DNA from: a virus
Taxonomy: Duplodnaviria > Heunggongvirae > Uroviricota > Caudoviricetes
IMG/VR virus record: IMGVR_UViG_2537561977_000019
Span: 1 to 19,354 of that record
Reading direction: 5' to 3' (one strand)
DNA: 19,354 bases
Position numbers and translations under genes: made by a program. The notes under the pieces are model-generated. The model saw nothing but the letters and a program-made list of their open reading frames with translations, did no database searches and was not told the DNA's origin. Positions within the stretch are counted from its first letter, which is position 1. Every line of letters begins with the position of its first letter. Positions 1,050 through 19,354 of this stretch are shown piece after piece.

Positions 1050-1051
1050 GC

Positions 1052-1128: not shown

Positions 1129-1129
1129 T

Positions 1130-1205: not shown

Positions 1206-1245
1206 GATAACATAATGATAACGTTACAGAATAAATTCAGCAATA

Positions 1246-2304: not shown

Positions 2305-2454
2305 GGATCAGTAAGCGTAACTCTGGTAGGCTCACTCTGCTTTTGCGCTAAAGCAGTGGGCCGTGGTTCGCTTGTGACCAGTAAGCATGAGCGAATGGCT
2401 GGCAGGTGCTACCAACACCCACCAGCCGCCCATTTTCACAGCAGGAAACCGCCA

Positions 2455-2682: not shown

Positions 2683-2778
2683 GACATACCAATAACTCTT
2701 GTCTAAAAATCCAGCAAGATAAAAAGTCAGTATTCACGACCACCAGCGTGTTTACTGTACTGCACCAAGTTTACAGGT

Positions 2779-2803
2779 ACAAAAACCCGCTCAGTGGCGG
2801 GTT
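2779..2803 (-). terminator. tR'-like intrinsic terminator downstream of Q
   Basis: Stem CCCGC (2786-2790) / GCGGG (2797-2801) with loop TCAGTG; on the minus strand it is followed by TTTTTGT (complement of 2779-2785). Confidence 0.5.
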
Positions 2804-2849
2804 CTTAAATCTTATCAACGGTAGACATACAAAGCCCATCGTTGGGAAA

Positions 2850-2878
2850 ATCTTATCCATATTTTTTGAAAAATGCAA
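2850..2878 (-). promoter_or_regulatory. Candidate late promoter (pR'-like) just downstream of Q
   Basis: Minus strand reads TTGCAT (complement of 2873-2878), a 17-nt spacer, then TAAGAT (complement of 2850-2855). It sits about 50 nt upstream of the tR'-like hairpin. Confidence 0.35.
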
Positions 2879-2909
2879 GCATCATGTCGCCATCTTCGGC
2901 AAAAATCAT

Positions 2910-3662: not shown

Positions 3663-3675
3663 GCTCGTTCTCCAC

Positions 3676-4671: not shown

Positions 4672-4672
4672 C

Positions 4673-5482: not shown

Positions 5483-5501
5483 ACTTCGTTTCTCCTCTTG
5501 A

Positions 5502-5891
5502 TCAGGCGGCTGCACCCGCCGTTTTCTCGTACTTACTGATAGTGATCTCGACCTTCCCTTTCGGGATAACCGGTCCCCACTCCACCAGCATTCTTTTCAC
5601 CTGACTGTCGTCTTCCCACACACCCGCGTGGGTCAGGGCGTCAAACAGCGCCTTGTTATAGTTGTCCAGATCGCGGATCCGGTTATCCGGAGGAAACAAC
5701 ACGATCTCCACTGAAGCAGGTGCCGACGTTGGTTTCGGCAGACGACGTAACTGCTCAACTATTGCTGCGCACGCCGCGCTCTGGAATTTTCGCCCCGCCG
5801 AGCTTATCAGGCTCTTACCAGCAAACGCCCCTTTGTTGGAGTGTCGCCAGTACGTGTTCACGCTGGGCGGAAAAGGCAGGATCAGCTTCAT
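5502..5891 (-). CDS. rusA: RusA-family Holliday junction resolvase
   Basis: 129 aa with RusA hallmarks (LPFPPSVNTYWRH ... RDLDNYNKALFDALT ... DDSQV). ATGA overlap with the upstream gene. Confidence 0.85.
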   Translation of the reverse strand: MKLILPFPPSVNTYWRHSNKGAFAGKSLISSAGRKFQSAACAAIVEQLRRLPKPTSAPASVEIVLFPPDNRIRDLDNYNKALFDALTHAGVWEDDSQVKRMLVEWGPVIPKGKVEITISKYEKTAGAAA

Positions 5892-6214
5892 ACTTTCAGG
5901 TCCCTCTCATGTAACCAGTGGGTTGCACGCAGCCTTGCGTTTTCCTCACCGGCAAGCAGTGCGCGGATAATCCCGACCGCCTCGCTGTCGTCGTCCTTCA
6001 CCGCGGTATGAAGCGTTATCCCCCGGGCCACGCCACGCTTTATCGTGATGACGCCTTTTTTCTCCAGTGCGCGAAGATGCTCCACCGCTGCATTCACTGA
6101 ACGGTATCCCAGCATGGTTGCCACCTCCTGATTGGTTGGCGGGAAGCCACGTTCTTTCTGATAAGAAATCAGCATATCCAGCACCTGCTGCTGGCATTGA
6201 GTTAACGTCGTCAT
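5888..6214 (-). CDS. LexA-like winged-helix DNA-binding domain protein with no peptidase domain
   Basis: The first ~70 aa align with the LexA N-terminal domain (LTQCQQQVLDML ... PPTNQEVATMLGYRSVNAAVEHLRALEKKGVITI ... ARGITL). The 108-aa protein lacks the S24 Ser/Lys protease domain. ATGA overlap with the Dam gene. Confidence 0.7.
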   Translation of the reverse strand: MTTLTQCQQQVLDMLISYQKERGFPPTNQEVATMLGYRSVNAAVEHLRALEKKGVITIKRGVARGITLHTAVKDDDSEAVGIIRALLAGEENARLRATHWLHERDLKV

Positions 6215-6864
6215 GCCGCCATCTCCCTGACCAGTTTTTCCGCCTGCTGGCGAACCTGCGCCAGAAACGCCTCACCACATGCCTCAAGTTCATCGCGCCC
6301 GATGTAGCTGATTGCCGGTCCCTTCCAGGTCTTATCGAAAACAGCAATAGCACCAGCGAAGAAAGCGCCTGTCGGCACCTGCTTCTCATCCTTCGGGATA
6401 AACCAGGCAGGCAGTTCAAAACCAATACGCCCGCGAATAAAAGCAATATGGTCCGCATCTTCCGGCCACCACACTTCGCTGGTGGCAGCTTTGATCAGGA
6501 AAACATAGCGCCCACCCTTATCACGCATGGCACTGGCATGTTTCATGATGTAACGCATGCCGGTGATGTATTGCCCCTCATGCTGACTGGCGCGGCTGTA
6601 TGGGGGATTACCAAAGGCAGCCCCTTTAAGCTCCGCAAGACGTTCTGACCAGTCATGCGCCAGCGCGTTGTCTTCCGCCGTGTAATACGCAGCACATTTG
6701 GCGTTATCACCGTCAGTGAACAGATCCAGAACAAACGGGCCAAACAGGGTGTTAATTCCCCAGAAAATGTTGTCCGGCGTGCGCCACTGATCACCCACTT
6801 CCTTCAGTTCATGGGCTGGTTTGTTCCTCAGTTCCACCAGCTCCTGGCAATATTTATTACTCAT
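6211..6864 (-). CDS. Phage Dam-family N6-adenine DNA methyltransferase
   Basis: NPPY motif (AAFGNPPYS) in a ~217-aa protein. ATG at 6864 overlaps the upstream stop (TAATG); an alternative GTG lies at 6897. Confidence 0.8.
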   Translation of the reverse strand: MSNKYCQELVELRNKPAHELKEVGDQWRTPDNIFWGINTLFGPFVLDLFTDGDNAKCAAYYTAEDNALAHDWSERLAELKGAAFGNPPYSRASQHEGQYITGMRYIMKHASAMRDKGGRYVFLIKAATSEVWWPEDADHIAFIRGRIGFELPAWFIPKDEKQVPTGAFFAGAIAVFDKTWKGPAISYIGRDELEACGEAFLAQVRQQAEKLVREMAA

Positions 6865-7352
6865 TAAGCCCCCACGTAATTCCCTGACAGATACCACTCA
6901 TCACCCGATACAGCGCGCTTGCTGCTTTTCCGTAAACACTGCTCACGACGCGCCAGAAAATTGTTTCGTTCTGGCTGGGAGTGGCTTTCACGGAATGCCG
7001 CCATCCACACCGTTGCAGCACGACGGTATAAGCCCCTGGACTCCAGTTCTTCCGCCTGGCGGGTCAGGCACAAAATCACCCGGGGATCGTTAGTGCCGAC
7101 ATAGAAATTGCGCACAGGTCTGGTTTCACGAACTGGTTGTGGTTCCGGCTCCTGCGCTCTCTCAGTCAGGCGTGGGAAATGTCTGCGTGTATCTCCTTCA
7201 CAACGGTGAGCCACACGCCCACTCTGACGTAACTTGCTTGCTGACTGCAGAACGCGCTGCCGTGAGTAACCTGCAAAAGCATCCGCAATGTCTCCGGAAG
7301 TACACCCCGGATGGGCTTCAATGAATTTCTGAACGTCATTCAAAAGACTCAT
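6864..7352 (-). CDS. Hypothetical phage protein (about 162 aa)
   Basis: ORF starts 3 nt after the O-like stop (ATG 7352, AGGGG SD) and is coupled to the downstream Dam gene. Arg-rich; no confident family. Confidence 0.5.
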   Translation of the reverse strand: MSLLNDVQKFIEAHPGCTSGDIADAFAGYSRQRVLQSASKLRQSGRVAHRCEGDTRRHFPRLTERAQEPEPQPVRETRPVRNFYVGTNDPRVILCLTRQAEELESRGLYRRAATVWMAAFRESHSQPERNNFLARREQCLRKSSKRAVSGDEWYLSGNYVGA

Positions 7353-7354
7353 GA

Positions 7355-8173
7355 TCACCCCCTGAATCCTGCCGGGATCTGGCTGTAGTCCACGTTGTCG
7401 TAACTGGCTTTGAAGTACGGGTCCTCGCGTCTGGCTGCAGATACCGCAGGAACTTCCCAGGATTCTTCGAAATGACGATCCGGACCAAAGAACGTGACAG
7501 CCTGTTTCACAAATTGTGTGCCGCTGTTACCCATCGCAGATACCCAGCCCGCGTAGCGTTTCACACCTTCCAGCATGGTTTCGGGGTTTACCCCCTCATT
7601 CAAACGGGCTTTCCAGGCTTTGAAGGCTGCAGATTTTGAATTGCCACCAGCACGTTTGGGATAGGCCAGCCATGCCTGCTCAAACTCCGGAGAGTATTCC
7701 GGTCGGTTTGAACTAACTCGCACAGACTCATCAGCAGATGCACCAACAGCTATTGGTTCATTGACTGGTTCTTTGACTGGTTCAAAAGAGTGACTGGTTC
7801 TGGGTGAATCTCCTGCACTACCCCCTAGTGCAACTCCTGCACTACCTGGTGAATTTGCTGCACCAGATAGTGAATTATTTGCACTACCCCCTAGTGAATC
7901 TCCTGCACCATCCAGATGAAGGAGATAGATATTACTTGAGTTACCTTTTTCACCTTTCCGGGTGACTTTTTTTACCAGCCCGGACTCACAAAGGGCCGCA
8001 ATATGATTCATCACAGAACGTTTGCTAATCTCGCACTGGTCAGCAATATGCTGGTAGCTGGGCCAGCACTCACCCTGATCGCTGGCATTATCAGCCAGCT
8101 TGATCAGAACCAGTTTTCGCAATGGATTACCCACTCGAATTTTCATCGCTTTAACCATCAGCTCCATACTCAT
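7355..8173 (-). CDS. Replication initiator, O-like (N-terminal winged-helix, Gly/Ser/Ala-rich linker)
   Basis: N-terminus LRKLVLIKLADNASDQGECWPSYQHIADQCEISKRSVMNHIAALCESGLVKK resembles phage replication-initiator HTH domains. The linker is encoded by repetitive DNA, as iterons are in lambda O. ATG at 8173 in an ATGA overlap. Confidence 0.65.
   Translation of the reverse strand: MSMELMVKAMKIRVGNPLRKLVLIKLADNASDQGECWPSYQHIADQCEISKRSVMNHIAALCESGLVKKVTRKGEKGNSSNIYLLHLDGAGDSLGGSANNSLSGAANSPGSAGVALGGSAGDSPRTSHSFEPVKEPVNEPIAVGASADESVRVSSNRPEYSPEFEQAWLAYPKRAGGNSKSAAFKAWKARLNEGVNPETMLEGVKRYAGWVSAMGNSGTQFVKQAVTFFGPDRHFEESWEVPAVSAARREDPYFKASYDNVDYSQIPAGFRG
7761..7910. repeat. Iteron-like direct repeat cluster inside the O-like gene (candidate origin)
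   Basis: TGACTGGTTC occurs three times (7762-7771, 7774-7783, 7791-7800); GTGAATCTCCTGCAC twice (7804-7818, 7894-7908); TGCACTACCCCCTAGTG twice (7814-7830, 7880-7896); CTCCTGCACTACC also at 7835-7847. Confidence 0.5.
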
Positions 8174-8394
8174 GCTGCACCTCCGAGATGCTTCATGTTT
8201 TTTCCGGAGCGAAAGGCTATAAGCGGCATACTGACGCGGTAATTACGGCCCAGCGGTTCACAAATCACCTTCTGACATTCACGGTCAACCAGGCTAACAC
8301 GTAGAACATGCCCTGCAGGCGTGGTGTACCACTGACCCGGACGAGGACAACGGAAAGTCTGATTGGTAAAACGTTTGAAAATATTCCGGATCAT
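8170..8394 (-). CDS. Small hypothetical protein (74 aa), possibly DUF4222-like
   Basis: ATGA overlaps at both ends (8391-8394 and 8170-8173) place it in the coupled early-right operon. The family guess is from a weak motif memory only. Confidence 0.45.
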   Translation of the reverse strand: MIRNIFKRFTNQTFRCPRPGQWYTTPAGHVLRVSLVDRECQKVICEPLGRNYRVSMPLIAFRSGKNMKHLGGAA

Positions 8395-9554
8395 TTACGC
8401 CCCCTTACCTCTGAAGGGTTCAGCGACAAATTTATGAGACTGGCCAGTAGCGCCGCGTCGTTGATGCGGTCATACAGACTTACAGCCAGCGGGGATTCGG
8501 CTTTTGCCAACATGGGATAAAGCTGCTGCAGCCAGACCTGATGAATTGATGAAATGTAGGAATAGAGAACGCTGGCGTTATGTGCAACGTCGCTCAGTAC
8601 AGAGGGATTTGAAAGCTGTTTCTCCATCTGGTTAAAGGCATTGATGTATGCCTCTTTGAACCGGGCAGCACGTTTACCCGTGAAACCCATAGCAAGAAAC
8701 GCAAAGCCGTCGCGGGTTATTTGATAGCAAGGAAGTTTGCGAGTACCGCCGTTGGGCTGGCGTACCAAAATTGATGTCTCCGCAAAATTGCGGGCACAAA
8801 ACTCTGGAGAACAATCCAAAATGCGGATCTTTTTCAGAACATCGTCATGACGTTTAGAGAAGAAGTCAGCAACAGCCAAAGAAGATGTAACAGCCTGACC
8901 ATCAACGATGGCAATTTCAGGTTGAGAGAGGGTTGGGAGAGTAGTCATGGTGACAGCCCCGGTAGTCAGTTTTTTAGAAAACTCACCACATGGGACGCCA
9001 ATCACAGAGGTGGTGAGACGTACAGGGTTGGCGTTACCGGAGACTACCGAACCCGGCCCGACCGAAGTCGGCCCTGTACGCCCCACCATAATTTGGGCGT
9101 AGCAATGCTCATGACACGAAAAAACCGCATGAGCGCGGTTATGCTCAGTAATCAATTTCAGGACGCCAATCCCGGCACCCGTTTTATAAGGTGCCTGAAC
9201 AGTGTAACGTCCCGGAATGGCAGAATCAATGTGCTGGTGGTCCTTCACACTCAACAAAATCACGCCTGAATTTCCACAAAGGACTAAAGCACTCATGCGG
9301 GTAGTCTTTGCGAAGATAGATAACGCGCTGTGTTTCTGGCTCCCAACGAATAACATGAACATAAAGTCCTCTTCCGTCACGAAACCAGCGGTTAAGTTCC
9401 TGCACAACTCGCCCCCCACAGTCAGGTAAAGTTCTCTGTGGTTACTTACAGCCAGGTGATTTGGTAATCTGCATTCATGCCGTAACAACAGGTGTGCAGC
9501 GACACTGACCACCAGCTGTTGCGACAAACGGTTATTTGCCGTTAAACTGTTCAT
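8391..9554 (-). CDS. Rha-family regulatory-domain protein with a ~200-aa N-terminal extension of unknown function
   Basis: Residues ~205-330 match the Rha pattern (AVADFFSKRHDDVLKKIRIL ... RDGFAFLAMGFTGKRAARFKEAYINAFNQME). ATG at 9554 overlaps the upstream stop (ATGA) with a GGAG SD; the frame stays open for 387 codons. An internal ATG at 8948 would give an Rha-only protein. Confidence 0.6.
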   Translation of the reverse strand: MNSLTANNRLSQQLVVSVAAHLLLRHECRLPNHLAVSNHRELYLTVGGELCRNLTAGFVTEEDFMFMLFVGSQKHSALSIFAKTTRMSALVLCGNSGVILLSVKDHQHIDSAIPGRYTVQAPYKTGAGIGVLKLITEHNRAHAVFSCHEHCYAQIMVGRTGPTSVGPGSVVSGNANPVRLTTSVIGVPCGEFSKKLTTGAVTMTTLPTLSQPEIAIVDGQAVTSSLAVADFFSKRHDDVLKKIRILDCSPEFCARNFAETSILVRQPNGGTRKLPCYQITRDGFAFLAMGFTGKRAARFKEAYINAFNQMEKQLSNPSVLSDVAHNASVLYSYISSIHQVWLQQLYPMLAKAESPLAVSLYDRINDAALLASLINLSLNPSEVRGRK

Positions 9555-10135
9555 GCGTTAGTTTCTCCACAACCAGAAGCAATCGACGCCACGACGCCCG
9601 GAGCTGCACACTCGCGGGCGTTACTCTTTTCCGGCGCACAAAAAACACGAAATAACAGTGTTAAATGCTCCTGCCACTTCGCCATTACTTGGTAGCTGTT
9701 CTCTTCGATTTGCTCACGCTCAGCTTGGTCAATAACTCCATCAGCAGTTGCCTTGCGTAAGTACTGGGAATGCTTGCCAATCCATTCTATTGACTCCATC
9801 AGCCGCTGATTAATGTCACCATTGTCAATGTCATCAATGACCACCAGCGGCACAAACACCCCATTACTACGACGGGCTATTGCATCTGTTACATGCCTGG
9901 TACCACTGGCATCCTGTAAAACCATGGCCCACTCAAGTGGAAAAATTTGATCCCCACCGCTACGCAGTCTGTTATGCAATTGATCTTTTGCTGGGGTGAT
10001 ATCATCAGATTTATACAAACCAAGAATTTCTGCTGCTTCCTCATAGCCATGAGGTAAATCAGCAATCGTTCTTCGTATTGCTGCCACCAGCCATGCTGGT
10101 TGTTTATCAACTTTCCATTCAGGTTCTTTACCCAC
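9551..10135 (-). CDS. Regulator in the cII position (possibly YdaT-like), about 195 aa
   Basis: GTG at 10135 has a GAGGA SD 7 nt upstream and lies 28 nt after the cro stop. The ORF track's upstream ATGs (10246, 10213) have no SD and would overlap cro. Function is inferred from position only. Confidence 0.45.
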   Translation of the reverse strand: MGKEPEWKVDKQPAWLVAAIRRTIADLPHGYEEAAEILGLYKSDDITPAKDQLHNRLRSGGDQIFPLEWAMVLQDASGTRHVTDAIARRSNGVFVPLVVIDDIDNGDINQRLMESIEWIGKHSQYLRKATADGVIDQAEREQIEENSYQVMAKWQEHLTLLFRVFCAPEKSNARECAAPGVVASIASGCGETNA

Positions 10136-10163
10136 GGTTAATTCCTCATTTCTGTGGTTACGT

Positions 10164-10427
10164 TTACGCAGCTGAACCGCTAACTTTTGAATAGCACTCA
10201 GGTAATCCATCATTTGGATTGGGGTAAATATCAGGACGCAGTTCATGAGGGGTCACGGACCAGTTTCCCAACTCACAAAGTTGTAAAACCCGTTCTGACG
10301 GGACTTGATTGTTAATTACCCAATTAGCGACGGATTGAGTGGACTTAAAACCAAAGCGACGGGCTACTTCAGATAAAGATTTTCCCGCAGCTTTTACTGC
10401 TTTCTCTGTGTAGTTTTGAGATGACAT
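10164..10427 (-). CDS. Cro-like HTH regulator (YdaS-like)
   Basis: 87 aa with an HTH segment (LSEVARRFGFKSTQSVANWV), divergent from the CI-like gene; GAGGAG SD before the ATG at 10427. Confidence 0.75.
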   Translation of the reverse strand: MSSQNYTEKAVKAAGKSLSEVARRFGFKSTQSVANWVINNQVPSERVLQLCELGNWSVTPHELRPDIYPNPNDGLPECYSKVSGSAA

Positions 10428-10533
10428 ACCTTTCTCCTCTGAAATTCAGAGGGATAATGCTACTTAAAATAGCAAAATGCAACTACTTAAAATAGAAATG
10501 ACTAGCGTATGTGATGTGAGTAATCTTCTACCT
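10428..10533. promoter_or_regulatory. Immunity-region operator/promoter interval (OR with divergent pR and pRM)
   Basis: 106-bp interval between divergent cro-like and cI-like starts. Contains two exact 13-bp direct repeats CTACTTAAAATAG (10460-10472, 10483-10495). Minus strand carries TTGCAT-17-CATTAT as a pR-like element. Confidence 0.5.
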
Positions 10534-11238
10534 ATGGTAGAAGAACAGAAGTATCCAGATTTCGCCAAGAGACTAAACGAGCTAATGACAAACAAGGGAA
10601 TTTCTGTCACCCAACTCAAAAGTCTTGTGGGCGTTACATATGAAATGGCGCGGCGATACACAATCGGCGCTGCGAAGCCTCGTGCCTCTGTCATGAATAA
10701 ACTTGCATTGGCTCTGGGGGTATCAGCTTCATATTTAGAATATGGTGTTGGCGAGAGAGAAGGATGTAAGGAAATGACAAGCATCCCCAATCCAACAAAA
10801 CCCGATGTATACAGGATAGAAGTTTTGGATCTTAGCGTTAGCGCAGGACCTGGGACCTATATGCTTTCAGACTATGTTGATGTGCTCTACGCCATTGAGT
10901 TCACAACAGAACATGCCCGTTCTCTTTTCGGCAACCGTTCTCAGGATGATATTAAGGTTATGACTGTAAATGGCGATAGTATGTCCCCTACTCTCGTTTC
11001 CGGAGACCGACTGTTTGTCGACATTTCTGTTCGTCACTTCCAGACTGATGGAGTTTACTCTTTCGTTTACGGTAAGACTTTTCATGTCAAACGTCTTCAA
11101 ATGCAAGGTGACAAGCTAGCCGTTCTTTCGGATAACCCCGCCTATGAGAAATGGTATATCGATGAAAAATCGCAGGATCAGCTTTATGTAATGGGCAAGG
11201 CGTTGATTCACGAATCTATAAAATACAACCGATTGTAA
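10534..11238 (+). CDS. CI-like prophage repressor (HTH plus S24 LexA-like peptidase domain)
   Basis: N-terminal HTH (FAKRLNELMTNKGISVTQLKSLVG) and C-terminal S24 motifs (VNGDSMSPTL ... GDRLFVD ... KRL). Start is uncertain: in-frame ATGs at 10477, 10498 and 10534, none with an SD, consistent with a leaderless pRM transcript. Confidence 0.8.
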   Translation: MVEEQKYPDFAKRLNELMTNKGISVTQLKSLVGVTYEMARRYTIGAAKPRASVMNKLALALGVSASYLEYGVGEREGCKEMTSIPNPTKPDVYRIEVLDLSVSAGPGTYMLSDYVDVLYAIEFTTEHARSLFGNRSQDDIKVMTVNGDSMSPTLVSGDRLFVDISVRHFQTDGVYSFVYGKTFHVKRLQMQGDKLAVLSDNPAYEKWYIDEKSQDQLYVMGKALIHESIKYNRL

Positions 11239-11282
11239 AACTCAATCCTTTCAGGATTAAAAGATCTAAAAGGATAATAATA

Positions 11283-11690
11283 ATGAAATCTGAACTATTT
11301 CATAACGAAGCAAATTCAGAAATTATCACCGCAGATGAGTTTATTGATTTCATAAACTCTTTCAAAAAGCCTTTAATTTGCCAAATTTGCGGAAATCAAT
11401 CATGGAGTGTAGTCGGTACTCTAGAACTTGAAGTTGAAGACAATCAGCCAAAACATCACGTAATCGAAGTTCTCAGCTATGCCCAATACAAACCTGAAAC
11501 TGATAGCGCTATAAATTATCCTGGTGGTATGCCGCTGTTTCGAATCACCTGTGATCACTGTGCACATGTACTTCTTTTTTCTTATAAAAAAGCTAGATCA
11601 TTGATCCAAAAAAGAAAAATGAAAAAGAAGAGGATGGGAAATGACGCGACCTTATCTCAGAGCAGTACCAAACTGTGGATCTGGTATTGA
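11283..11690 (+). CDS. Hypothetical Zn-ribbon protein (135 aa) in an AT-rich cassette co-oriented with cI
   Basis: ATG at 11283 with an AAGGA SD, 45 nt after the cI stop. Two CxxC pairs (CQICGN and CDHC) and a basic C-terminus. AT-rich composition by eye. Confidence 0.55.
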   Translation: MKSELFHNEANSEIITADEFIDFINSFKKPLICQICGNQSWSVVGTLELEVEDNQPKHHVIEVLSYAQYKPETDSAINYPGGMPLFRITCDHCAHVLLFSYKKARSLIQKRKMKKKRMGNDATLSQSSTKLWIWY

Positions 11691-12273
11691 TAAGTGTGAC
11701 CTTTACCCCAATGTTAAGAACAGGCTGCGCGTCGGTATAGAAGAAATGTATACTGATTTTATCGAATCCGCAGATGAAACTTACAAAACTGATGGGGGAA
11801 ATAAAATGTCATCAGTTAGTCGAGAAGAAATTCAAGCACTTTTAGCTGCCAATAAAGCAGAAATGGAGTCCATTGCATCCTCTATTAGAGTTGAAATGGC
11901 TTTATCTCGCGAGAACACAAACGTTCAGCTAGCATCTCTAAATTCAGCCATCAATTCTATCTCTTCGAAAATCGAAGGCAAAATGGACAGTGTTGACGGG
12001 GATGTGAAGGCCATCAATGGTAGATTCGAAGGTATACAAGGCCAAATTACTGGAATAAATACAGCCATTAGTGGTATTCAATCTGGAATTTCTACCAGAC
12101 TTGCTATTTTTGGAGTTATCATTGCGGTCATAGTTGCATTACCTAGCATAATTTCTGCTTTTAAAGATACTTCGCCAGTAGTTCAACCAGTTACACAACA
12201 ACCAAGTGTTAAACATCTCAACCAAGAACCAATTACTCCACAAGTATTACCTCCGCAGGGAAAAGCAAACTAA
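11641..12273 (+). CDS. Hypothetical coiled-coil protein with a single C-terminal transmembrane helix
   Basis: Two candidate starts, each with a good SD: 11641 (GAGGA, overlaps the previous ORF by 50 nt) and 11806 (GGGGGA). Heptad-like Ser/Ile/Gly repeats, then LAIFGVIIAVIVALPSIISAF and a Pro/Gln-rich tail. Confidence 0.55.
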   Translation: MTRPYLRAVPNCGSGIDKCDLYPNVKNRLRVGIEEMYTDFIESADETYKTDGGNKMSSVSREEIQALLAANKAEMESIASSIRVEMALSRENTNVQLASLNSAINSISSKIEGKMDSVDGDVKAINGRFEGIQGQITGINTAISGIQSGISTRLAIFGVIIAVIVALPSIISAFKDTSPVVQPVTQQPSVKHLNQEPITPQVLPPQGKAN

Positions 12274-12297
12274 ACCGGCTTTATGCCGGTTTTTTTC
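12274..12297 (+). terminator. Intrinsic terminator ending the cI-linked cassette
   Basis: Stem ACCGGC (12274-12279) / GCCGGT (12285-12290), loop TTTAT, followed by TTTTTTC. Confidence 0.75.
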
Positions 12298-12399
12298 TAT
12301 ACAAACGCCCCCTCTTTGTCTTGAATCACATCACAACACATTTAAAAAACATTTTAAATTCAAAGCATTAAACGCATCAACGCATATCAAACAAATTAT

Positions 12400-12448
12400 C
12401 TACTTTTAGTTGTTGATTTTTGCTACTTTTGGTAGCAGAATTATTTTA
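12400..12448 (+). promoter_or_regulatory. Candidate pL/OL: plus-strand promoter overlapping operator-like sites
   Basis: TTGCTA (12420-12425), 16-nt spacer, TATTTT (12442-12447). Overlaps CTACTTTTGGTAG (12423-12435) and sits next to CTACTTTTAG (12400-12409), both sharing the CTACTT...TAG ends of the OR repeats. Confidence 0.4.
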
Positions 12449-12520
12449 ACGACAACGAACAGGCAGGACGCCCACGAAGTAGCCGCCTGGGGCATATGAA
12501 GTCCAGGATGATTCGTTAGC

Positions 12521-12547
12521 AACAAAAAAGCGCCCTACAGGACGCTT
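12521..12547 (-). terminator. Intrinsic terminator for the convergent minus-strand gene
   Basis: Stem AAGCG / CGCTT with a 10-nt loop, followed on the minus strand by TTTTTTGT. Confidence 0.45.
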
Positions 12548-12585
12548 AGCTCTTTAACAATCTGGATATCCACAACAGTAGTAAT

Positions 12586-13077
12586 CTACAGATTGCCGTT
12601 AAGTTTTCTGGACAACTCCTCAATGGATGGAGGCGATACGTAATCCGGATTTTTATTCATCAGAAACTTATTTTCACAGTGGAGGCACCTGCTTTTATGA
12701 AAAAGCTCATCTTCGCTAACCGGGAATGGTTGAAGTATCGATACTATCTTTTGTCCAAAACATTTTGGGCAAAGATGCATGGTTATGCTGCCACCGTTCA
12801 CGATTACCTCCTTCGAGTATACAAAAGTACCCGACTCAAGTTGGTTAAGGATATAGCCTTCCGTCTGAGCCTCAAAGTTTTCGAATTCTGCAATTTTAGC
12901 TTTGAGAGAAGCATTTATTTCTTGATAAGAGCCCACCAGTTCAACGAGAGACACGCATTCGCGCTGAATAGACGCAAGCTTTGAGTTCAGCTCACCAATA
13001 GCCGCATTTACTTCAGCTTGAGTTTTTGCCTCGTTCATTAGTTTTGCAATCTGGGCTGTTTCACGAATAGCCGTCAT
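12586..13077 (-). CDS. Hypothetical coiled-coil protein with a C-terminal Zn-ribbon (about 163 aa)
   Basis: AT-rich ORF convergent on the cI cassette. Likely start ATG 13077 or GTG 13101 (AAGAG SD); the longer ORF-track N-terminus is Arg/Pro-rich and judged non-coding. C-terminus HLCPKCFGQ ... CLHCENKF. Confidence 0.5.
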   Translation of the reverse strand: MTAIRETAQIAKLMNEAKTQAEVNAAIGELNSKLASIQRECVSLVELVGSYQEINASLKAKIAEFENFEAQTEGYILNQLESGTFVYSKEVIVNGGSITMHLCPKCFGQKIVSILQPFPVSEDELFHKSRCLHCENKFLMNKNPDYVSPPSIEELSRKLNGNL

Positions 13078-13115
13078 TGCTGCCGTTAATTCAGCGATCA
13101 CATTGAATACTCTTA

Positions 13116-13169
13116 TTGTTGTTGGGGATATCCAGATTAACCGAATCCTTGTTGTTGGGGAATAACCAG
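13116..13169. repeat. Tandem direct repeat TTGTTGTTGGGGA-TA-CCAG (two copies)
   Basis: 13116-13135 TTGTTGTTGGGGATATCCAG and 13149-13169 TTGTTGTTGGGGAATAACCAG, just upstream of the minus-strand gene start. Confidence 0.4.
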
Positions 13170-13388
13170 GTCCACCTCGCCTGATGTGGCTAAAAGCAGG
13201 CACATAACAGCTAAGTATTTTCAACCAGAGAGAATCCTTAGCGTTGTGGTGAATGCGGCTCAGCGCACGCGGGTTAAGGTTGAGGCTGACAGTCGACCTT
13301 CTGTGGATACCCACCCGTCTGGTGTGCAACCTTCGCCAGGCACCGGGAGGCACCCGGCACCACAACTTTATGCTGTGTGTAGTCCTGG

Positions 13389-13433
13389 CGGTACCAGTTT
13401 GTACCCTTGCTTCCGGCTGGTACCGTCCTTTTT
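13389..13433 (+). terminator. Terminator-like hairpin with T-tract in the early-left leader
   Basis: 9-bp arms CGGTACCAG (13389-13397) / CTGGTACCG (13417-13425), then TCCTTTTT. About 140 nt upstream of the first early-left gene. Confidence 0.4.
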
Positions 13434-13570
13434 ACAAAACAGAGAAGAGCATCACCGGACGACGGGCTCATAACCCAATCCATCCGGGCGGCTGCCACCG
13501 CAGGTGTTCTTCTCTGTTTTGTGGAGAAACCAACCGGCCTTGCAGGGTCGATATGATGAGGAGCAGCAAA

Positions 13571-13933
13571 ATGGCTAGCGAACGCAGTACTGATGTGCAG
13601 GCATTTATCGGGGAGTTGGACGGCGGCGTATTTGAAACCAAAATCGGCGCAGTTCTCAGTGAAGTCGCTTCAGGTGTGATGAACACGAAAACCAAAGGTA
13701 AGGTCTCACTCAACCTGGAAATCGAACCATTTGATGAGAACCGTGTGAAAATCAAACACAAACTCTCATATGTTCGCCCGACTAACCGCGGGAAAATTTC
13801 CGAAGAAGACACCACCGAAACGCCGATGTATGTCAATCGCGGTGGTCGCCTGACTATTCTGCAGGAAGACCAGGGACAATTACTGACTCTTGCCGGTGAA
13901 CCTGACGGAAAACTCCGCGCAGCAGGTCATTAA
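13571..13933 (+). CDS. Hypothetical early-left protein, YfdP-like (about 120 aa)
   Basis: ATG 13571 with a GAGGAG SD; the longer ORF-track N-terminus is GC-rich leader. Family name is a tentative match based on size and gene order. Confidence 0.5.
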   Translation: MASERSTDVQAFIGELDGGVFETKIGAVLSEVASGVMNTKTKGKVSLNLEIEPFDENRVKIKHKLSYVRPTNRGKISEEDTTETPMYVNRGGRLTILQEDQGQLLTLAGEPDGKLRAAGH

Positions 13934-13998
13934 TATCGTTCTTAATTAACCGATTATTTATCTCATCACTGAATATCTTTATATAGTGAGGACTTATT

Positions 13999-14823
13999 AT
14001 GTCTCAGAACTTAGACGCAACCGCAATTAATCAAATCCATGCCCTTATTTCTGCTCAGGGTGTTAATGAAATTATCAGTAAGATTGGTGCCGATGCTGTG
14101 GCATTACCTGAAAATTTCCGCATTCATGATCTGGAAAAATTTAATTTAAATCGCTTCCGTTTCCGTGGTGCGCTTTCCACTGCCAGCATCGATGACTTTA
14201 CCCGTTATTCTAAAGATCTTGCAGATGAAGGCACCCGCTGCTTTATCGATGCCGATAATATGCGTGCCGTCAGTGTGCTTAACCTGGGTACTATTGATGA
14301 ACCAGGTCACGCAGATAACACTGCCACTCTCAAACTGAAAAAGACAGCACCGTTCTCTGCTCTGTTGTCTGTTAACGGCGAGCGTAACTCCCAGAAGTCA
14401 CTGGCAGAATGGATTGAAGACTGGGCCGACTACCTTGTGGGCTTTGATGCTAATGGTGACGCCATTCAGGCAACCAAAGCGGCTGCGGCGATCCGTAAAA
14501 TCACAATTGAAGCGAACCAGACCGCTGATTTTGAAGATAATGACTTCAGCGGCAAACGCTCCCTGATGGAGTCTGTCGAAGCGAAGACCAAAGACATTAT
14601 GCCTGTGGCATTTGAATTTAAATGCGTTCCGTTTGAAGGTCTGAAAGAACGTCCGTTTAAATTACGCCTCAGCATTATCACTGGCGATCGTCCTGTACTG
14701 GTTCTGCGCATTATTCAGCTGGAAGCGATGCAGGAAGAAATGGCTAACGAATTTCGTGATCTGCTTGTTGAGAAATTCAAAGACAGCAAAGTAGAAACCT
14801 TTATTGGTACTTTCACCGCCTGA
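13999..14823 (+). CDS. YfdQ-like (DUF2303) protein, 274 aa
   Basis: ATG 13999 with a GAGGA SD. Size and neighbours (HD-domain gene next) resemble the yfdPQRS prophage block; family recalled, not computed. Confidence 0.6.
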
Positions 14824-14951
14824 TTTCATTACTGCAAATGCCCCTGCGGGGGCATTTATGGAAACGTAATTAACTCAATAATCACCGGATGGTGAGAGCT
14901 TCCTTTTAGCAGAATTCAGCGCGGTGCAGCGCATATAAAGTGGAGAACGAA

Positions 14952-15488
14952 ATGTCATTTATTAAAACTTTTTCCGGGAAGCATTTTTATTATGACAAGA
15001 TAAATAAAGACGACATCGTGATTAACGATATCGCAGTTTCCCTTTCAAATATCTGTCGCTTTGCAGGACATCTTTCACACTTCTACAGTGTCGCCCAGCA
15101 TGCGGTGCTTTGCAGCCAGCTGGTGCCGCAGGAATTTGCTTTTGAAGCGTTAATGCATGATGCAACAGAAGCATATTGCCAAGACATCCCCGCGCCACTG
15201 AAACGACTTCTTCCTGACTATAAACGGATGGAAGAAAAAATAGACGCCGTAATCCGTGAGAAATACGGGTTACCTCCTGTTATGAGCACGCCAGTGAAAT
15301 ATGCCGATCTCATTATGCTGGCAACCGAACGCCGTGATCTCGGGCTTGATGATGGCTCTTTCTGGCCTGTTCTGGAAGGTATCCCGGCAACAGAGATGTT
15401 CAAAGTTATTCCACTGTCGCCAGGCCATGCCTATGGGATGTTTATGGAGCGTTTTAACGAGTTATCGGAGTTACGCAAATGCGCATGA
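14952..15488 (+). CDS. HD-domain phosphohydrolase (YfdR-like 5'-deoxynucleotidase)
   Basis: HD-domain metal ligands (FAGHLSHFYSVAQHAVL ... LMHDATEAY). ATG 14952 with a GGAG SD gives 178 aa. Confidence 0.7.
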   Translation: MSFIKTFSGKHFYYDKINKDDIVINDIAVSLSNICRFAGHLSHFYSVAQHAVLCSQLVPQEFAFEALMHDATEAYCQDIPAPLKRLLPDYKRMEEKIDAVIREKYGLPPVMSTPVKYADLIMLATERRDLGLDDGSFWPVLEGIPATEMFKVIPLSPGHAYGMFMERFNELSELRKCA

Positions 15489-15829
15489 ATGTTTTCGAAA
15501 TGGAAGGGTTTCTTCGCGGGAAATGTGTACCGCGAGATCTGAAAGTGAATGAAACAAATGCTGAGTATCTGGTGCGTAAATTCGATGAAGTACGTGCTGA
15601 GGCTCGCAACGAGGGTATTAACTATACCGCAAGCCGTCTTGCTGCTGCTTTCAATCACGGATTTATCAATAAGCCTTTGGCTGAAGTTTTCGACGTTACA
15701 CGCATGATTCTGTCAGCAAAAGAAGAGTTAGCTAATGAATCGCATCCGATTGATGGCCTGTCCGGTGAATATGCAGAGAAATCCCTTGAAGAATGGGCGG
15801 AACGGCTTCGCAAAGGAGGCAGCCAGTGA
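15485..15829 (+). CDS. Hypothetical protein, YfdS-like (about 114 aa)
   Basis: ATG 15485 overlaps the upstream stop (ATGA); an alternative ATG lies at 15479. No motif recognised. Confidence 0.5.
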   Translation: MNVFEMEGFLRGKCVPRDLKVNETNAEYLVRKFDEVRAEARNEGINYTASRLAAAFNHGFINKPLAEVFDVTRMILSAKEELANESHPIDGLSGEYAEKSLEEWAERLRKGGSQ

Positions 15830-16299
15830 CTGGACATGCAGCAATCCTCGACATGTGCTGTGGCAGTCGCATGTTCTGGTTCGATAAGAATGACGACCGG
15901 GCGATATTTAGCGATATCAGAAAGGAAGAGCACACATTGTGTGATGGACGACGCCTGATTATCAGTCCTGATCTGATAGCTGATTTTCGTGCACTACCAT
16001 TTGCAGACGCATCTTTTTCGATGGTTATATTCGACCCTCCGCATCTTGAGCGTGTTGGTGATAACGCCTGGATGGGAAAGAAATATGGACGGCTGAATAA
16101 AGATACCTGGCGTGATGATTTGCGGCAGGGATTTAAAGAAGCCTTTCGTGTGTTGCGTCCATCCGGCGTTCTGATTTTTAAATGGAATGAAACGCAAATA
16201 CCTGTTCGCCAGATATTGGTACTGACCGACAGAAAACCTGTTATCGGTCAACGAACAGGAAAAAACGATAAAACCCACTGGATTATTTTTATAAAATAG
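15826..16299 (+). CDS. Small SAM-dependent methyltransferase-like protein (157 aa)
   Basis: Motif I-like (AILDMCCGS) followed by a DPPH motif (VIFDPPHLE). GTG 15826 sits 6 nt after an AAGGAGG SD and overlaps the upstream stop (GTGA). Confidence 0.6.
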   Translation: MTGHAAILDMCCGSRMFWFDKNDDRAIFSDIRKEEHTLCDGRRLIISPDLIADFRALPFADASFSMVIFDPPHLERVGDNAWMGKKYGRLNKDTWRDDLRQGFKEAFRVLRPSGVLIFKWNETQIPVRQILVLTDRKPVIGQRTGKNDKTHWIIFIK

Positions 16300-16445
16300 G
16301 CATCCAGTGAGTAGGTTCGTAAGGTTACAGATACGTATATCTGAATAATTAAATTCAGTTCTGTAAATAAAATTTAATCCTTAACCGGAGGGATTCCTGC
16401 ACCCTCAGAACATCAGGAGACCGCCCGAAAGGGCGGTAATGAAAA

Positions 16446-16862
16446 ATGGCTGAATTAACCAAATGGCTACAAAACACGATTACCGGAATTGAAACGGTAG
16501 TAGACGATAAATCGTTTGTATGTGATGAAATAGTATTCAAAATCGATGTGGTTAAAAACGTACTTACCGCATTTAAAGTCGCGCTGGCATCGCTGGAAGC
16601 AGAGCCGATAGGTTTCCGTTGCAGGCGCAATGATAACCTTGGTGACTGGAGTTACGTATATCATCGAGAGCCAGATGATTTTGAGCGCAAACATTTAGTG
16701 ATAGAGGGCATTTACGCCGCCCCTCCAGTGCTAGTAGTACCGGAAGAAAAACCAATGCCTAATCCTCTTAGCATGTACGCGGTCGATGCTGTTGCCGCTA
16801 TTGCAGAGGTGAGAGGCTGGAACGCCTGCCGTGCCGCTATGCTTCAGGGGAAAGGAGAGTGA
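16446..16862 (+). CDS. Hypothetical protein (138 aa)
   Basis: ATG 16446, preceded by a GNRA-loop hairpin and a distant AGGAGA; followed by a coupled downstream gene. Confidence 0.5.
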   Translation: MAELTKWLQNTITGIETVVDDKSFVCDEIVFKIDVVKNVLTAFKVALASLEAEPIGFRCRRNDNLGDWSYVYHREPDDFERKHLVIEGIYAAPPVLVVPEEKPMPNPLSMYAVDAVAAIAEVRGWNACRAAMLQGKGE

Positions 16863-16863
16863 T

Positions 16864-17445
16864 ATGACCACTATAACCGATAAGAAACAGTATCCCAGCG
16901 ATCAATATCTTAATGAGCTGATCACCAACATGGAGTTTGCTGCAAGGGCACCAGTTGAAGTCGTGAGAGCGATGGCAGCAGAGCTACAGAAGCGGCGCGA
17001 AGCTGATAGTGCAGAACCTGTAAGCCAAACTTACAACTTGCCAGAATTAATCGAAGGCATGGAAGTTTCCATTGATGTAAGCACTTGTGATGCTGATTTA
17101 GGTAATCGCTATTTCGGCACCGTAACCGAGGCGTTAGAACTTGATACTGCCAAGAATGGTTACATCCTCCTGGTTCAGGACGCAGAGCCAAACTTCGATG
17201 TAAATGGCAACTCTCCGGTAACTCCGGATGGTTGGATAAGCTGTAGTGATCGAATGCCTGAAAAGGGCCAGAACGTGCTTATTTCGGTGAATTTCGATAG
17301 CTCTCTGGTTGAACCGCTAATATGCTCCGCACGCTATACCGGAAGCACCTTTCGGCGCGGAGATGCAACGATTAAGCCGGGTAATGGTATTGAGCAAGCA
17401 ACTCACTGGATGCTGCTACCGGAACCGCCGCAGGAGGTGAAGTGA
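16864..17445 (+). CDS. DUF551-like phage protein
   Basis: ATG 16864 with an AGGAGAG SD; C-terminal DGWISCSDRMPEKGQNVLI resembles the DUF551 signature. Confidence 0.6.
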   Translation: MTTITDKKQYPSDQYLNELITNMEFAARAPVEVVRAMAAELQKRREADSAEPVSQTYNLPELIEGMEVSIDVSTCDADLGNRYFGTVTEALELDTAKNGYILLVQDAEPNFDVNGNSPVTPDGWISCSDRMPEKGQNVLISVNFDSSLVEPLICSARYTGSTFRRGDATIKPGNGIEQATHWMLLPEPPQEVK

Positions 17446-18017
17446 TGAACAACTTAATGATCGACCTTGAGACGATGGGGAAAAATAAGGATGCACCGAT
17501 CGTTTCCATTGGCGCGGTGTTCTTCACTCCAGAAACCGGAGACATCGGACAAGAATTCTATACGGTTGTCAGCCTGGACAGTGCTATGGAGCAAGGGGCC
17601 ACACCTGACGGCGATACCATCCTGTGGTGGTTGAAACAAAGCCCTGAAGCACGAGCTGCAATCTGTATTGATGATACTTTGTCGATCAGCGATGCACTCT
17701 CTGAACTGAGCCATTTCATTAATCGGCACGCAGACAATACGAAATATTTAAAAGTTTGGGGTAACGGGGCCACCTTCGACAACGTAATTTTACGCGGAGC
17801 TTATGAACGAGCGGGACAAATCTGCCCGTGGGCGTACTGGAATGACCACGATGTACGCACGATCGTTACGCTTGGGCGTTCCATCGGATTCGACCCAAAA
17901 ATGGACATGCCTTTCGATGGCGAACGGCACAACGCCCTGGCTGATGCCCGTCATCAGGCAAAATATGTTTCCGCTATCTGGCAGAAACTAATTCCTGCCA
18001 CCAGCACAGAATTATGA
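17445..18017 (+). CDS. DEDDh-type 3'-5' exonuclease
   Basis: Exo I motif (MIDLETMG) and Exo III H-x4-D motif (HNALADA). ATG 17445 overlaps the upstream stop, with a GGAGG SD. Confidence 0.7.
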   Translation: MNNLMIDLETMGKNKDAPIVSIGAVFFTPETGDIGQEFYTVVSLDSAMEQGATPDGDTILWWLKQSPEARAAICIDDTLSISDALSELSHFINRHADNTKYLKVWGNGATFDNVILRGAYERAGQICPWAYWNDHDVRTIVTLGRSIGFDPKMDMPFDGERHNALADARHQAKYVSAIWQKLIPATSTEL

Positions 18018-18053
18018 TTTTCCCGGGTGCAGCCGGTTTTGATGGAGAAAATT

Positions 18054-18326
18054 ATGAACACCTTGTTTTTACTGATGGCTGAATTCAATACCCCTAACAT
18101 TGAACTCTCAGCAGTTAGCCAAAAGTACTTTGGCATGAGTCCAGCCACGGCAGAAGCAAAAGCAAACGCTTGTAAGTTGCCCGTTCCAACATATCGCATC
18201 GGCACATCACAAAAAGCAAAACGTTGCATCAATATTCAGGATCTTGCGGAATACATAGACAAAAGGCGAGAAGAAGGGCGTGCTGAGTGGGAAAGGGTCA
18301 GAACCCATAAACAAAGGCTCATTTAA
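18054..18326 (+). CDS. PrtN/excisionase-like small DNA-binding protein
   Basis: Pattern SQKYFGMSPATAEAKANACKLPVPTYRIGTSQKAKRCINIQDLAEYIDKRR; ATG 18054 with a GGAGAAA SD. Last gene of the plus-strand operon. Confidence 0.55.
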   Translation: MNTLFLLMAEFNTPNIELSAVSQKYFGMSPATAEAKANACKLPVPTYRIGTSQKAKRCINIQDLAEYIDKRREEGRAEWERVRTHKQRLI

Positions 18327-18335
18327 ATAGAATAT

Positions 18336-18365
18336 GAATAAACCCATCCAAAGATGGGTTTATTC
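18336..18365. terminator. Bidirectional terminator hairpin between convergent genes
   Basis: 13-bp perfect arms GAATAAACCCATC (18336-18348) / GATGGGTTTATTC (18353-18365) with loop CAAA, AT-rich on both flanks. Confidence 0.55.
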
Positions 18366-18821
18366 ATAATGTTGAAGAGCAGCGAGTATCAGTTTTTTAT
18401 GCCGTTTAACCATAGTTTTAGATATCTCAACTGCACATCGAACTTGTCTCATACAATGATCTGTAATGCGACCTTTTAGCACGTCACCATATTGGATGGC
18501 TATTTTCTCTTTAATAATTTCAAGATCGAAAGCAGCATGAGCCTCAATGCAATTAACAAATGAGTCCCATTTAAGAAAATCATGGTCCTCTCTATTAATT
18601 TCGACCTGACAAGCCATAAGATCATTGTTTCTCTTAATAAATTCATTTATATCTGAATTTATTAGAAGAACTAAAAGAGGTTCACAGCAAACAACCACCA
18701 TATATTTTACTTTAGGTGGGGTCGTAAAATCACAATGAAGATACAATACATCACCGGGTGATATACCTCTTTCACGACTAAAATTAGCCTTAAAATCAGG
18801 AGGGAAACAATCACCCAGCAT
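18360..18821 (-). CDS. Hypothetical protein (about 153 aa), coupled partner of the Panacea-like gene
   Basis: AT-rich ORF starting 5 nt after the upstream stop (ATG 18821; a TTG at 18830 overlaps the stop). Cys/His-containing; no family recognised. Confidence 0.5.
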   Translation of the reverse strand: MLGDCFPPDFKANFSRERGISPGDVLYLHCDFTTPPKVKYMVVVCCEPLLVLLINSDINEFIKRNNDLMACQVEINREDHDFLKWDSFVNCIEAHAAFDLEIIKEKIAIQYGDVLKGRITDHCMRQVRCAVEISKTMVKRHKKLILAALQHYE

Positions 18822-18826
18822 AAGTA

Positions 18827-19354
18827 TCAATATCCGTTCTTCAGATAATCCAGTATTAATTTGCTATTTTTTAGCTGTGCAACTATCGATTCCAAAGACA
18901 TCTCACCATTGTGATCTGCCTGTTCCCATGCCGCGTCATGGCTCATGGTTCTGATAGCTTCAAAGGACATGTTTCCAAGCATCGCGATAGACTTATCAAT
19001 ACACTCTAAATCTGAGTCACTAAAAAAGTCTTCATCAGCTTCACGGCTCGGCACAATCGTCATACCTGATACAGAAAATGCTTTTCGCACAGAATCGACA
19101 TCACAATCATTAGGAATGTAACGTCCATCTCCACGAGCAATTTTTATAATATCGTATGTGTTGCTTGCTACAGGCCCATCCTTCATAGCGTTATAGTGAT
19201 CGCCCGTTATGAGGCGTCCAAAACTTTCAAGGTGAAACCTGTCAGCATAATAAAGAATTTTTCCGACATGATAGATATCTGGGATCGGTGCTTTAGAGGC
19301 GACGTACAGAATGGCCTCTAAAGCCTTTTCTGAATCAAACCTTACATTTAGCAT
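18827..19354 (-). CDS. Panacea-domain (DUF4065)-like protein; start codon sits at the window edge
   Basis: KILYYADRFHLESFGRLITGDHYNAMKDGPVASNTYDIIK and the later SHDAAWEQA fit the DUF4065 pattern. The ATG is at 19352-19354 and its upstream region is outside the window. Confidence 0.55.
   Translation of the reverse strand: MLNVRFDSEKALEAILYVASKAPIPDIYHVGKILYYADRFHLESFGRLITGDHYNAMKDGPVASNTYDIIKIARGDGRYIPNDCDVDSVRKAFSVSGMTIVPSREADEDFFSDSDLECIDKSIAMLGNMSFEAIRTMSHDAAWEQADHNGEMSLESIVAQLKNSKLILDYLKNGY

Follow-up and report, generated by a model that had tools for sequence, protein, structure and literature searches.

The window analysed here, a stretch of 19,354 nucleotides (nt) corresponding to positions 1 to 19,354 of the IMG/VR virus record IMGVR_UViG_2537561977_000019 (Caudoviricetes), was identified as the early region of a lambdoid prophage in scans for open reading frames (ORFs), PHROGs and Pfam families, tRNA genes and terminators. 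The prophage is of the SfV/ST64B/e14 type, lacks an N gene and has an untranslated leader of approximately 1.1 kb in its early-left operon, which starts at the candidate promoter pL. Within this leader, positions 13243-13528 are a portable non-coding RNA cassette that consists of a pseudoknotted domain (E2), an intrinsic terminator and a long hairpin (E3), and a second conserved RNA (E1) and a boxA sequence are located near the start of the pL transcript. A previous sequence-only reading of the window had noted a GC-rich segment with multiple hairpins, a terminator-like structure and a long-range inverted repeat in front of the early-left genes, had found no N-like gene, and had suggested a cis-acting RNA that controls readthrough, analogous to the put RNAs of phage HK022, or an attenuator. 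The features of the leader are as follows:

12413-12447, plus strand: candidate pL with an operator-like palindrome (TTGATT-17-CAGAAT or TTGCTA-16-TATTTT, read from the sequence)
12451-12524, plus strand: E1, conserved 5'-terminal leader RNA of the pL transcript (helix 12455-12459 / 12512-12516, hairpin CCUGG/CCAGG)
12528-12547, both strands: hairpin from the terminator scan; on the minus strand the terminator of the gene at 12586-13080, in the plus-strand RNA immediately 5' of boxA
12549-12560, plus strand: boxA, GCUCUUUAACAA (GCTCTTTAACAA), an exact rrn boxA core 25 nt past E1
13243-13366, plus strand: E2, STnc100-like pseudoknotted domain (Rfam RF02076, covariation)
13243-13251 / 13358-13366, plus strand: P1 of E2, inverted repeat GUUGUGGUG / CACCACAAC
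13254-13267, 13319-13339 and 13343-13357, plus strand: P2, P4 and P5 of E2
13276-13282 with 13327-13333, plus strand: pseudoknot of E2, AAGGUUG with CAACCUU
13367-13386, plus strand: single-stranded linker, UUUAUGCUGUGUGUAGUCCU, with the conserved core GCUGUGUG(U/A)AGUC
13387-13435, plus strand: intrinsic terminator (13-bp stem 13387-13399 / 13415-13427, 15-nt loop, U5 tract)
13429-13528, plus strand: E3, 25-bp hairpin containing a 14-nt perfect repeat (stem 13429-13453 / 13503-13527, G-U pairs included)
13455-13487 and 13488-13501, plus strand: H2 and H3, which form the three-way junction that caps E3

The segment 13243-13530 has a GC content of 57.3%, as compared to 47.5% for the window, and the 371-nt leader segment as a whole folds with a z-score of -5.4. 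The hairpins of the sequence-only reading correspond to a conserved non-coding RNA structure with a genuine terminator before the early-left genes, and in the folding and covariance analysis across homologous prophages, P1 and the pseudoknot of E2 and the stem of E3 were all found to covary. By pairing of the GUUGUGGUG / CACCACAAC repeat, the GC-rich part is enclosed in a single domain of several helices. Among 33 diverse members, P1 contained 35 compensatory cells, as compared to 14.9 in shuffled alignments (0/500) and at most 15 if the pairing partner was slid. For the pseudoknot, which joins the segment after P2 to the loop of P4, the matched energy was -10.8 kcal/mol and the mismatched energy -7.4 kcal/mol, with none of 10,000 permutations being as good. 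P5 also covaries (GGUGG/CCACC in LLS, Eeyore and Kp4866-6), and a further variant of E2 is present in mEp460 and the Stx2a phage WGPS2. P2 was left unscored because its register is ambiguous between the subfamilies, and P4 and the pseudoknot were tested sequence by sequence, the P4 columns having been left unaligned by MAFFT. Hairpins resembling tRNA T-arms (GGTTCGATTCC / GGTTCAATTCC) were observed upstream of the E2 variant in the Klebsiella phage Kp4866-6 (L232, 2200-2290) and WGPS2 (L314, 5740-5850).

Within the STnc100/PasD family, E2 represents a divergent member that has no promoter of its own and in which the closing helix and the pseudoknot both covary. The whole Rfam model STnc100 (RF02076) could be aligned over 13213-13435 with a score of 41.2 bits, which is below the gathering score of 47 (E = 3e-7 in a permissive scan of 1.3 kb; 4.9e-6 for the whole window). 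The copies in SfV and ST64B scored 39.5 and 35.1 bits, and SfV-type copies overall 35-43 bits, as compared to 52-132 bits for canonical STnc100 copies that share the 20-nt core. E2 nevertheless has the core architecture of the family, namely P1, P5 and a pseudoknot formed by the P4 loop with the segment that follows P2. A 22-nt core is matched exactly at 13341-13362, where P5 (CCGGG-AGGCA-CCCGG) adjoins the 3' strand of P1, and the 20-nt core ACCGGGAGGCACCCGGCACC was recovered from more than 120 IMG/VR contigs, often in two to four copies per contig. At one IMG/VR locus (L015, 2265-3380, minus strand), four canonical copies (77-132 bits) are arranged in tandem within 1.1 kb beside tRNA genes, and several other contigs contain pairs of copies approximately 485-490 nt apart. 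Weak Rfam matches to DicF and RprA were dismissed as noise at the level of the terminator.

The canonical members are known as discrete RNAs. Eleven copies of 159-210 nt have been described in E. coli O157:H7 EDL933, with RNA-seq reads for all of them, several hundred to several thousand for most, and Northern confirmation for one (PMC5331693). Such RNAs of about 160-210 nt accumulate in uninduced lysogens (PMC5331693), and the structural relative PasD is an abundant, Hfq-bound small RNA (bioRxiv 10.64898/2026.05.13.724894). In 39 of 90 canonical copies a sigma-70-like site ends 5-9 nt before P1, as compared to 4 of 90 at a control position, while no such site (promoter score 8/12) was found at P1 in any of the 33 SfV-type copies. 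A terminator within 160 nt is shared by both groups (30/33 SfV-type copies, 86/90 canonical copies). A promoter scan of the plus strand over 12250-13700 also returned nothing. As no promoter was detected at E2, the copy in the window should be transcribed within a longer RNA, most simply the pL transcript.

The terminator, previously placed at 13389-13433, was recovered as a 13-bp stem followed by a U tract at 13387-13435 (stem then CUUUUUAC; -20.5 kcal/mol, z = -3.85); it was missed in a simple terminator scan because of its 15-nt loop. It begins 21 nt past P1 of E2. At the same position, relatives carry four unrelated stems (GGCGGUACCAG, GUCGGCGUC, UGCCCAUC and GGCGGUUAUCC), all of which are followed by the same U tract. 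The occurrence of four non-homologous stems in one place argues that termination here is selected. The linker core GCUGUGUG(U/A)AGUC is kept in the window, SfV, e14, ST64B, LLS, Eeyore and Kp4866-6, and since it is conserved although the stems that follow differ, the linker is likely to have a sequence-specific role; our guess is that it acts as a seed. The best non-self complement of 13366-13390 in the window is 15806-15845 on the plus strand (-28.5 kcal/mol, about 4 standard deviations from the mean, 1 of approximately 7700 windows), a site just inside the 5' end of the methyltransferase ORF 15793-16299 that may have been matched by chance.

The inverted repeat at 13435-13448 / 13508-13521 is a perfect 14-nt repeat exactly as first described, or 15 nt if 13434/13522 is counted, and a repeat search extended its arms to 25 nt (13434-13458 / 13498-13522) with 84% Watson-Crick pairs. 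By our own arithmetic, only about 0.007 perfect 14-nt repeats within 100 nt are expected by chance in 19 kb. The E3 stem has a folding energy of -51.0 kcal/mol (z = -8.25), and none of 200 shuffled sequences was as stable. Pairing was retained in 93.6% of the cells in an alignment of 10 sequences (A3), in which 8 pairs were changed on both sides, as compared to 3.3 in shuffled alignments (0/500) and at most 3 with slid partners. Several invariant U-G pairs identify the plus strand as the RNA strand. H2 is strongly conserved, and H3 varies in length. The stem begins in the U tract of the terminator and ends approximately 45 nt short of the first start codon, regardless of which gene that is. 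Its 25 bp exceed the duplex length of about 20 bp of RNase III substrates, and such a duplex directly after a terminator suggests processing by RNase III; a literature search for RNase III mapping on e14 returned nothing relevant.

Several observations show that the region is non-coding and modular. The substitutions relative to ST64B are spread evenly over codon positions, both in the plus-strand frame (23/25/23) and in the minus-strand frame (15/19/16), and the indels are 1, 1 and 20 nt long, from which we conclude that the region is non-coding. Mosaic joints coincide exactly with the base of the terminator (13386) and with the position immediately past E3, and the gene that follows E3 varies by locus (yfdP, xisE in e14, or unrelated genes), so that the cassette behaves as a portable unit. 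Three ORF calls nevertheless cover the region, namely an open frame at 13253-13933 that runs into yfdP, the YmfH annotation in e14, and a minus-strand ORF that matches phrog_3651. In the e14 copy, where the coding sequence ymfH is annotated, the otherwise invariant P5 contains a 1-nt deletion and a G>A change. We read the overlapping ORFs (ymfH, phrog_3651) as annotation artefacts on a conserved RNA. The K-12 gene ymfH (e14, locus L005, 4047-4358) is in itself a decayed copy of the E2-terminator-E3 cassette. Overexpression of ymfH has been reported to trigger RcaT, the toxin of retron-Sen2 (preprint, bioRxiv 10.1101/2020.06.22.160242), and the active agent in that experiment could be the RNA instead of a protein.

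At the other end of the leader, a promoter scorer gave 8/12 just upstream of E1, and we infer promoter activity of pL from the sequence. Pairing in E1 was retained in 97.4% of the cells, with 9 of the 15 pairs changed on both sides (alignment A2, RNAalifold and pair counting), and the 84 compensatory cells compare to 20.4 in shuffled alignments (0/500) and at most 16 with the partner slid. The covariance model of E1, R1, produced a single match of 93 bits in the window and identified one copy each in SfV, ST64B, e14, Eeyore, Kp4866-6, Pectobacterium ZF40 and an Aeromonas phage. A further copy was found in the T5-like Providencia phage PR1, where it is located in the pre-early region within the terminal repeat. 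The 20-nt core of E1 is present in more than 120 IMG/VR contigs and at 76 loci in species-representative genomes, nearly all of them in Enterobacterales; a single Xenorhabdus genome contains as many as four copies. At least 36 distinct, unrelated promoter/operator contexts precede E1, and at 53 of 99 loci a -10 hexamer ends about 7-21 nt upstream of it, mostly at 13-16 nt. E1 had no match in Rfam, and no paper that quotes the core sequences of E1 or E2 was found in a literature search; E1 is apparently an undescribed leader RNA. In phages without E2, a second conserved stretch (AACGCGCA(T/G)CAGGT ... ACGTTCTGAC ... GGGAAAGAC) follows E1. This stretch was observed at L236 (2566-2640), L237 (2574-2700) and IMG/VR loci where the closing helix of E1 is of the GGUGG type, and may be another leader element.

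The boxA at 12549-12560 is the only exact match within the window. The sequence GCTCTTTA was found within 150 nt downstream of E1 at 32 of 154 loci, as compared to 9 of 924 control windows (approximately 20-fold), and the association recurs in at least five independent sequence contexts, that of PR1 included; copies of E2 showed no association with boxA. As for a boxB after boxA, the sole nearby hairpin (12528-12547) precedes boxA and has a 4-nt loop. In rrn and CRISPR leaders, boxA is described as binding NusB-S10 and suppressing Rho termination (PMC7665894).

The genes that surround the leader are those of a lambdoid early region:

2910-3692, minus strand: Q-like antiterminator
minus strand: cII-like gene, antirepressor-type regulator, O-like replication gene, RusA and methyltransferase (profile scans)
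10427-10164, minus strand: cro (gene calls)
10477-11238, plus strand: cI, followed by two accessory ORFs
12272-12292, plus strand: terminator of the cI operon (terminator scan)
12586-13080, minus strand: gene that was overlooked in the sequence-only reading
13571-13933, plus strand: yfdP-family gene, the first early-left gene (phrog_204, E = 1e-49)
from 13999, plus strand: yfdQ/DUF2303
between yfdQ and xis, plus strand: early-left genes for a nucleotide phosphatase, a methylase and an exonuclease
18027-18326, plus strand: xis

The closest phages among the matches listed are PhiR29, SfV, SfIV and SfII, with ST64B at about 77% identity, and the e14 element of E. coli K-12 contains a copy of the region with 90% identity. 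In agreement with the sequence-only reading, no N-like family was identified with PHROGs and Pfam among the sizeable ORFs from the Q-like gene (2910-3692) to xis (18027-18326), and the ORFs at 12679-12984 and 13186-13473 had no matches in these scans. N is also absent from the relatives SfII, SfV and SfIV (PMC3851460) and from LLS, for which a put-like mechanism was merely guessed in 2025 (PMC12315714). Part of a nut-type signal is present, namely the exact boxA at 12549-12560.

A few other observations were made in the window. The interval that separates E2 from the minus-strand gene 12586-13080 contains two direct copies of TTGTTGTTGGGGA(T/A)A(T/A)CCAG (13108-13170), at which a regulator of that gene's promoter may bind. 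Four tRNA genes (Gly-UCC, Thr-UGU, Arg-UCU and Met-CAU) are located at 896-1205 on the minus strand, downstream of the Q-like gene and the methyltransferase gene. A P1-type C4 antisense RNA (82 bits) and isrK (60 bits) were identified at 9006-9194 (minus strand) within the 5' part of ORF 8391-9554, which encodes an antirepressor-like protein of 387 amino acids. Since the PHROG matches of this protein start at residue 61 or later, the arrangement suggests a c4/ant-type second immunity module with an over-extended ORF. The C4 and isrK pair is also present in SfV, mEp460 and ST64B.

In the reading that we favour, and in which we place middling confidence, the cassette serves as a barrier and processing module through which readthrough is licensed by E1 together with boxA. 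The terminator would act as an insulator that stops, at 13433, any plus-strand transcription that has not been made termination-resistant, and xis and its neighbours would thereby be shielded from other plus-strand transcription in the lysogen. The stopped transcripts would carry an STnc100-like 3' end, to which Hfq probably binds; the likely seed is the linker. Polymerases that start at pL would be licensed to read through by the promoter-adjacent E1 and the rrn-type boxA, which may recruit NusB-NusE (S10), protect the untranslated leader of about 1.1 kb from Rho and perhaps also provide resistance to the terminator. In the readthrough RNA, the E3 duplex would be a processing site of the RNase III type or a stability site that conditions the downstream mRNA; a cut there would detach the yfdP mRNA from the leader, and the upstream RNA would then have the terminator hairpin at its 3' end. 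An STnc100-type RNA could thus be freed either by termination or by cleavage at E3.

Several points weigh against this reading, of which we infer all functional steps. E1 is absent from LLS, mEp460 and Stx2a_WGPS2, although all three carry the E2-terminator-E3 cassette. This makes E1 a module distinct from the cassette, and it can be neither a universal licence nor the sole route to readthrough. A boxA follows only about 20% of the E1 copies, and boxA complexes of the rrn type are known to act mainly on Rho-dependent, not intrinsic, terminators. The conserved loop of H2 suggests a specific recognition beyond that of a plain RNase III duplex, and alignment A3 is small. Folding energy is weak on its own for both E2 (z = -1.9) and E1 (z = -1.1).

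The main rival is the idea of the sequence-only reading that E2 itself is a cis-acting, put-like antiterminator, the nascent domain binding the polymerase and carrying it through the adjacent and later terminators. We regard this as rather unlikely. In N-less phages, the early-left operon always begins with E2 or a variant of it that is followed directly by a terminator, also in LLS, mEp460 and Stx2a_WGPS2, which have no E1; its 20-nt core is near-invariant over very different phages, as would fit a host target, and its fold is complex and pseudoknotted. The idea keeps weight because E2-terminator-E3 is the sole element common to all N-less relatives examined. However, homology to put was rejected: comparison with putL and putR of HK022 and the putL-like RNA of HK639, by blastn and reading of the put sequences and with no search using a model of E2, revealed only CGAAC and AGGAUGA in common, in different structural contexts, and HK022 was missing among the 60 listed of 65 blastn matches to 13200-13570. 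The location of E2, about 800 nt after the candidate pL, is also far from the early transcript start, and the canonical members are equipped with a promoter of their own and with a terminator that follows at about 46 nt. The accumulation of their discrete RNAs in uninduced lysogens implies efficient termination downstream of the domain, an argument against E2 as a put-like antiterminator. Control of the N-less operon by an RNA is a plausible part of the earlier proposal, but the RNA that antiterminates was probably misidentified. In position, putL is matched best by E1 (12451-12524), which is near the transcript start and outside the segment that was then considered, although model R1 had no match in the 10-kb cI-proximal locus of HK022 (L002, with putL and putR) or in the whole genome of HK639.

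We also consider it unlikely that E2 and the terminator are a riboswitch-like attenuator, in which a ligand or protein on the domain decides whether the terminator forms. The layout does resemble that of an aptamer, with a closed multi-helix junction, a linker and a terminator, the conserved junction nucleotides and the pseudoknot would fit, and GGUACC occurs three times around the terminator and permits alternative pairings. However, no alternative anti-terminator pairing is conserved across the four terminator types, no linked metabolic gene hints at a ligand, and visual inspection of the first 50-60 nt past the domain revealed no hairpin with a U tract in about one quarter of the members so inspected (the scripted scan nevertheless assigned a terminator within 160 nt to 86 of 90 copies).

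It is likewise improbable that E2 and the terminator are an independent small-RNA gene with its own promoter, expressed in the lysogen and located in the leader by chance. Family membership, the terminator and the conserved linker would be in line with such a gene, a weak AAGACA-17-TATTTT is present upstream in SfV and e14, and Reg-Seq detected only a condition-specific start for the intE-xisE-ymfH operon of e14 (PMC12133099). Against it, none of the 33 SfV-type copies reaches 8/12 where canonical copies have their promoter, the plus-strand scan was empty, and the -35-like hexamer in the window is degraded through a 1-nt deletion; an own promoter for E2 was rejected on the basis of these scans of the window and the SfV-type copies.

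That the repeats act as DNA, whether by binding a protein or by marking a recombination boundary of mosaic modules, is very unlikely. The positions of the mosaic joints, exactly at 13386 and immediately past E3, would fit such a role, but conserved modules become recombination joints naturally, without this being their function; furthermore, pairing in the helices is maintained by compensatory changes and by G-U pairs, which correspond to A-C mismatches in the opposite strand, and a 59-nt gap between half-sites is unlike an operator. A protein-coding function, as ymfH on the plus strand (in frame with yfdP from 13253) or as the minus-strand ORF 13274-13498, is scarcely credible and was rejected by the codon-position and indel tests, since the uninterrupted frame to 13933, the YmfH annotation and the match to phrog_3651 (E = 8e-50) are set against the lack of a third-position excess, a match limited to profile positions 88-160 with the frame broken in the window, compensatory changes within the RNA helices, and a ymfH frame that occurs in a copy with a mutated RNA core.

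We would raise, only tentatively, the possibility that E1, often with boxA, is a new class of early antitermination RNA that acts in cis and independently of N, is unrelated to put and is used by many temperate phages of Enterobacterales and a T5-like phage, with E2-terminator-E3 as a dedicated barrier and processing module that also releases an STnc100-type regulatory RNA on induction. The E1-boxA pair is the more novel lead, and the cassette is a variant of a known RNA family. N is lacking in many lambdoid phages, among them SfII, SfV and SfIV, which mediate serotype conversion in Shigella, ST64B of Salmonella, e14, LLS and, in O157:H7, a group of Stx2a/Stx2c-converting phages. With mutable candidates named (E1, boxA, the terminator and E3), the way in which such phages pass their early terminators becomes testable in K-12-compatible systems. 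The region itself is a conserved RNA cassette tied to STnc100/PasD and not the annotated ymfH or phrog_3651 genes, and its location suggests that some STnc100-type RNAs may come from phage early leaders on induction instead of from their own promoters.

We compared the elements of the leader to known systems. E2 shares with STnc100/PasD the GGUG...CACC closing helix, the AAU in J1/2, the position of P5 next to the 3' strand of P1, the pseudoknot and the layout of a linker followed by a terminator. It differs in its sub-threshold score, in P2 and the inner hairpins, in being promoter-less and embedded in the pL leader, in being followed by E3, and in its location in the early-left operon as compared to near Q, stx or lysis genes. 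E3 resembles the RNase III sites of the lambda N leader, lambda sib and the T7 early RNA in that a long, near-perfect duplex is located on an early transcript just before a start codon, but cleavage of E3 is putative, and the conserved three-way junction and the overlap with the U tract of the terminator set it apart.

As in HK022 and HK639, an N-less phage here carries a conserved, structured RNA on the early-left transcript upstream of a terminator, and E1, unlike E2, begins within a few nucleotides of the transcription start, as does putL. No similarity to put was detected, either with model R1 for E1 or by blastn (60 of 65 matches listed) and reading of the put sequences for E2, and the helix layout is different. 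Antitermination by HK022-type put is factor-independent and works through the beta-prime zinc-binding domain. E1 has a boxA alongside, whereas put needs no Nus factors (PMC9378689). The window differs from lambda nut in the lack of an N gene and, apparently, of a GNRA-like boxB pentaloop, and in that the hairpin doubles as the terminator of the opposing gene. Like lambda nutL and the rrn leaders, however, the window has an exact boxA core shortly after the promoter, and the hairpin precedes boxA, as in the boxB-boxA order of the rrn leaders.

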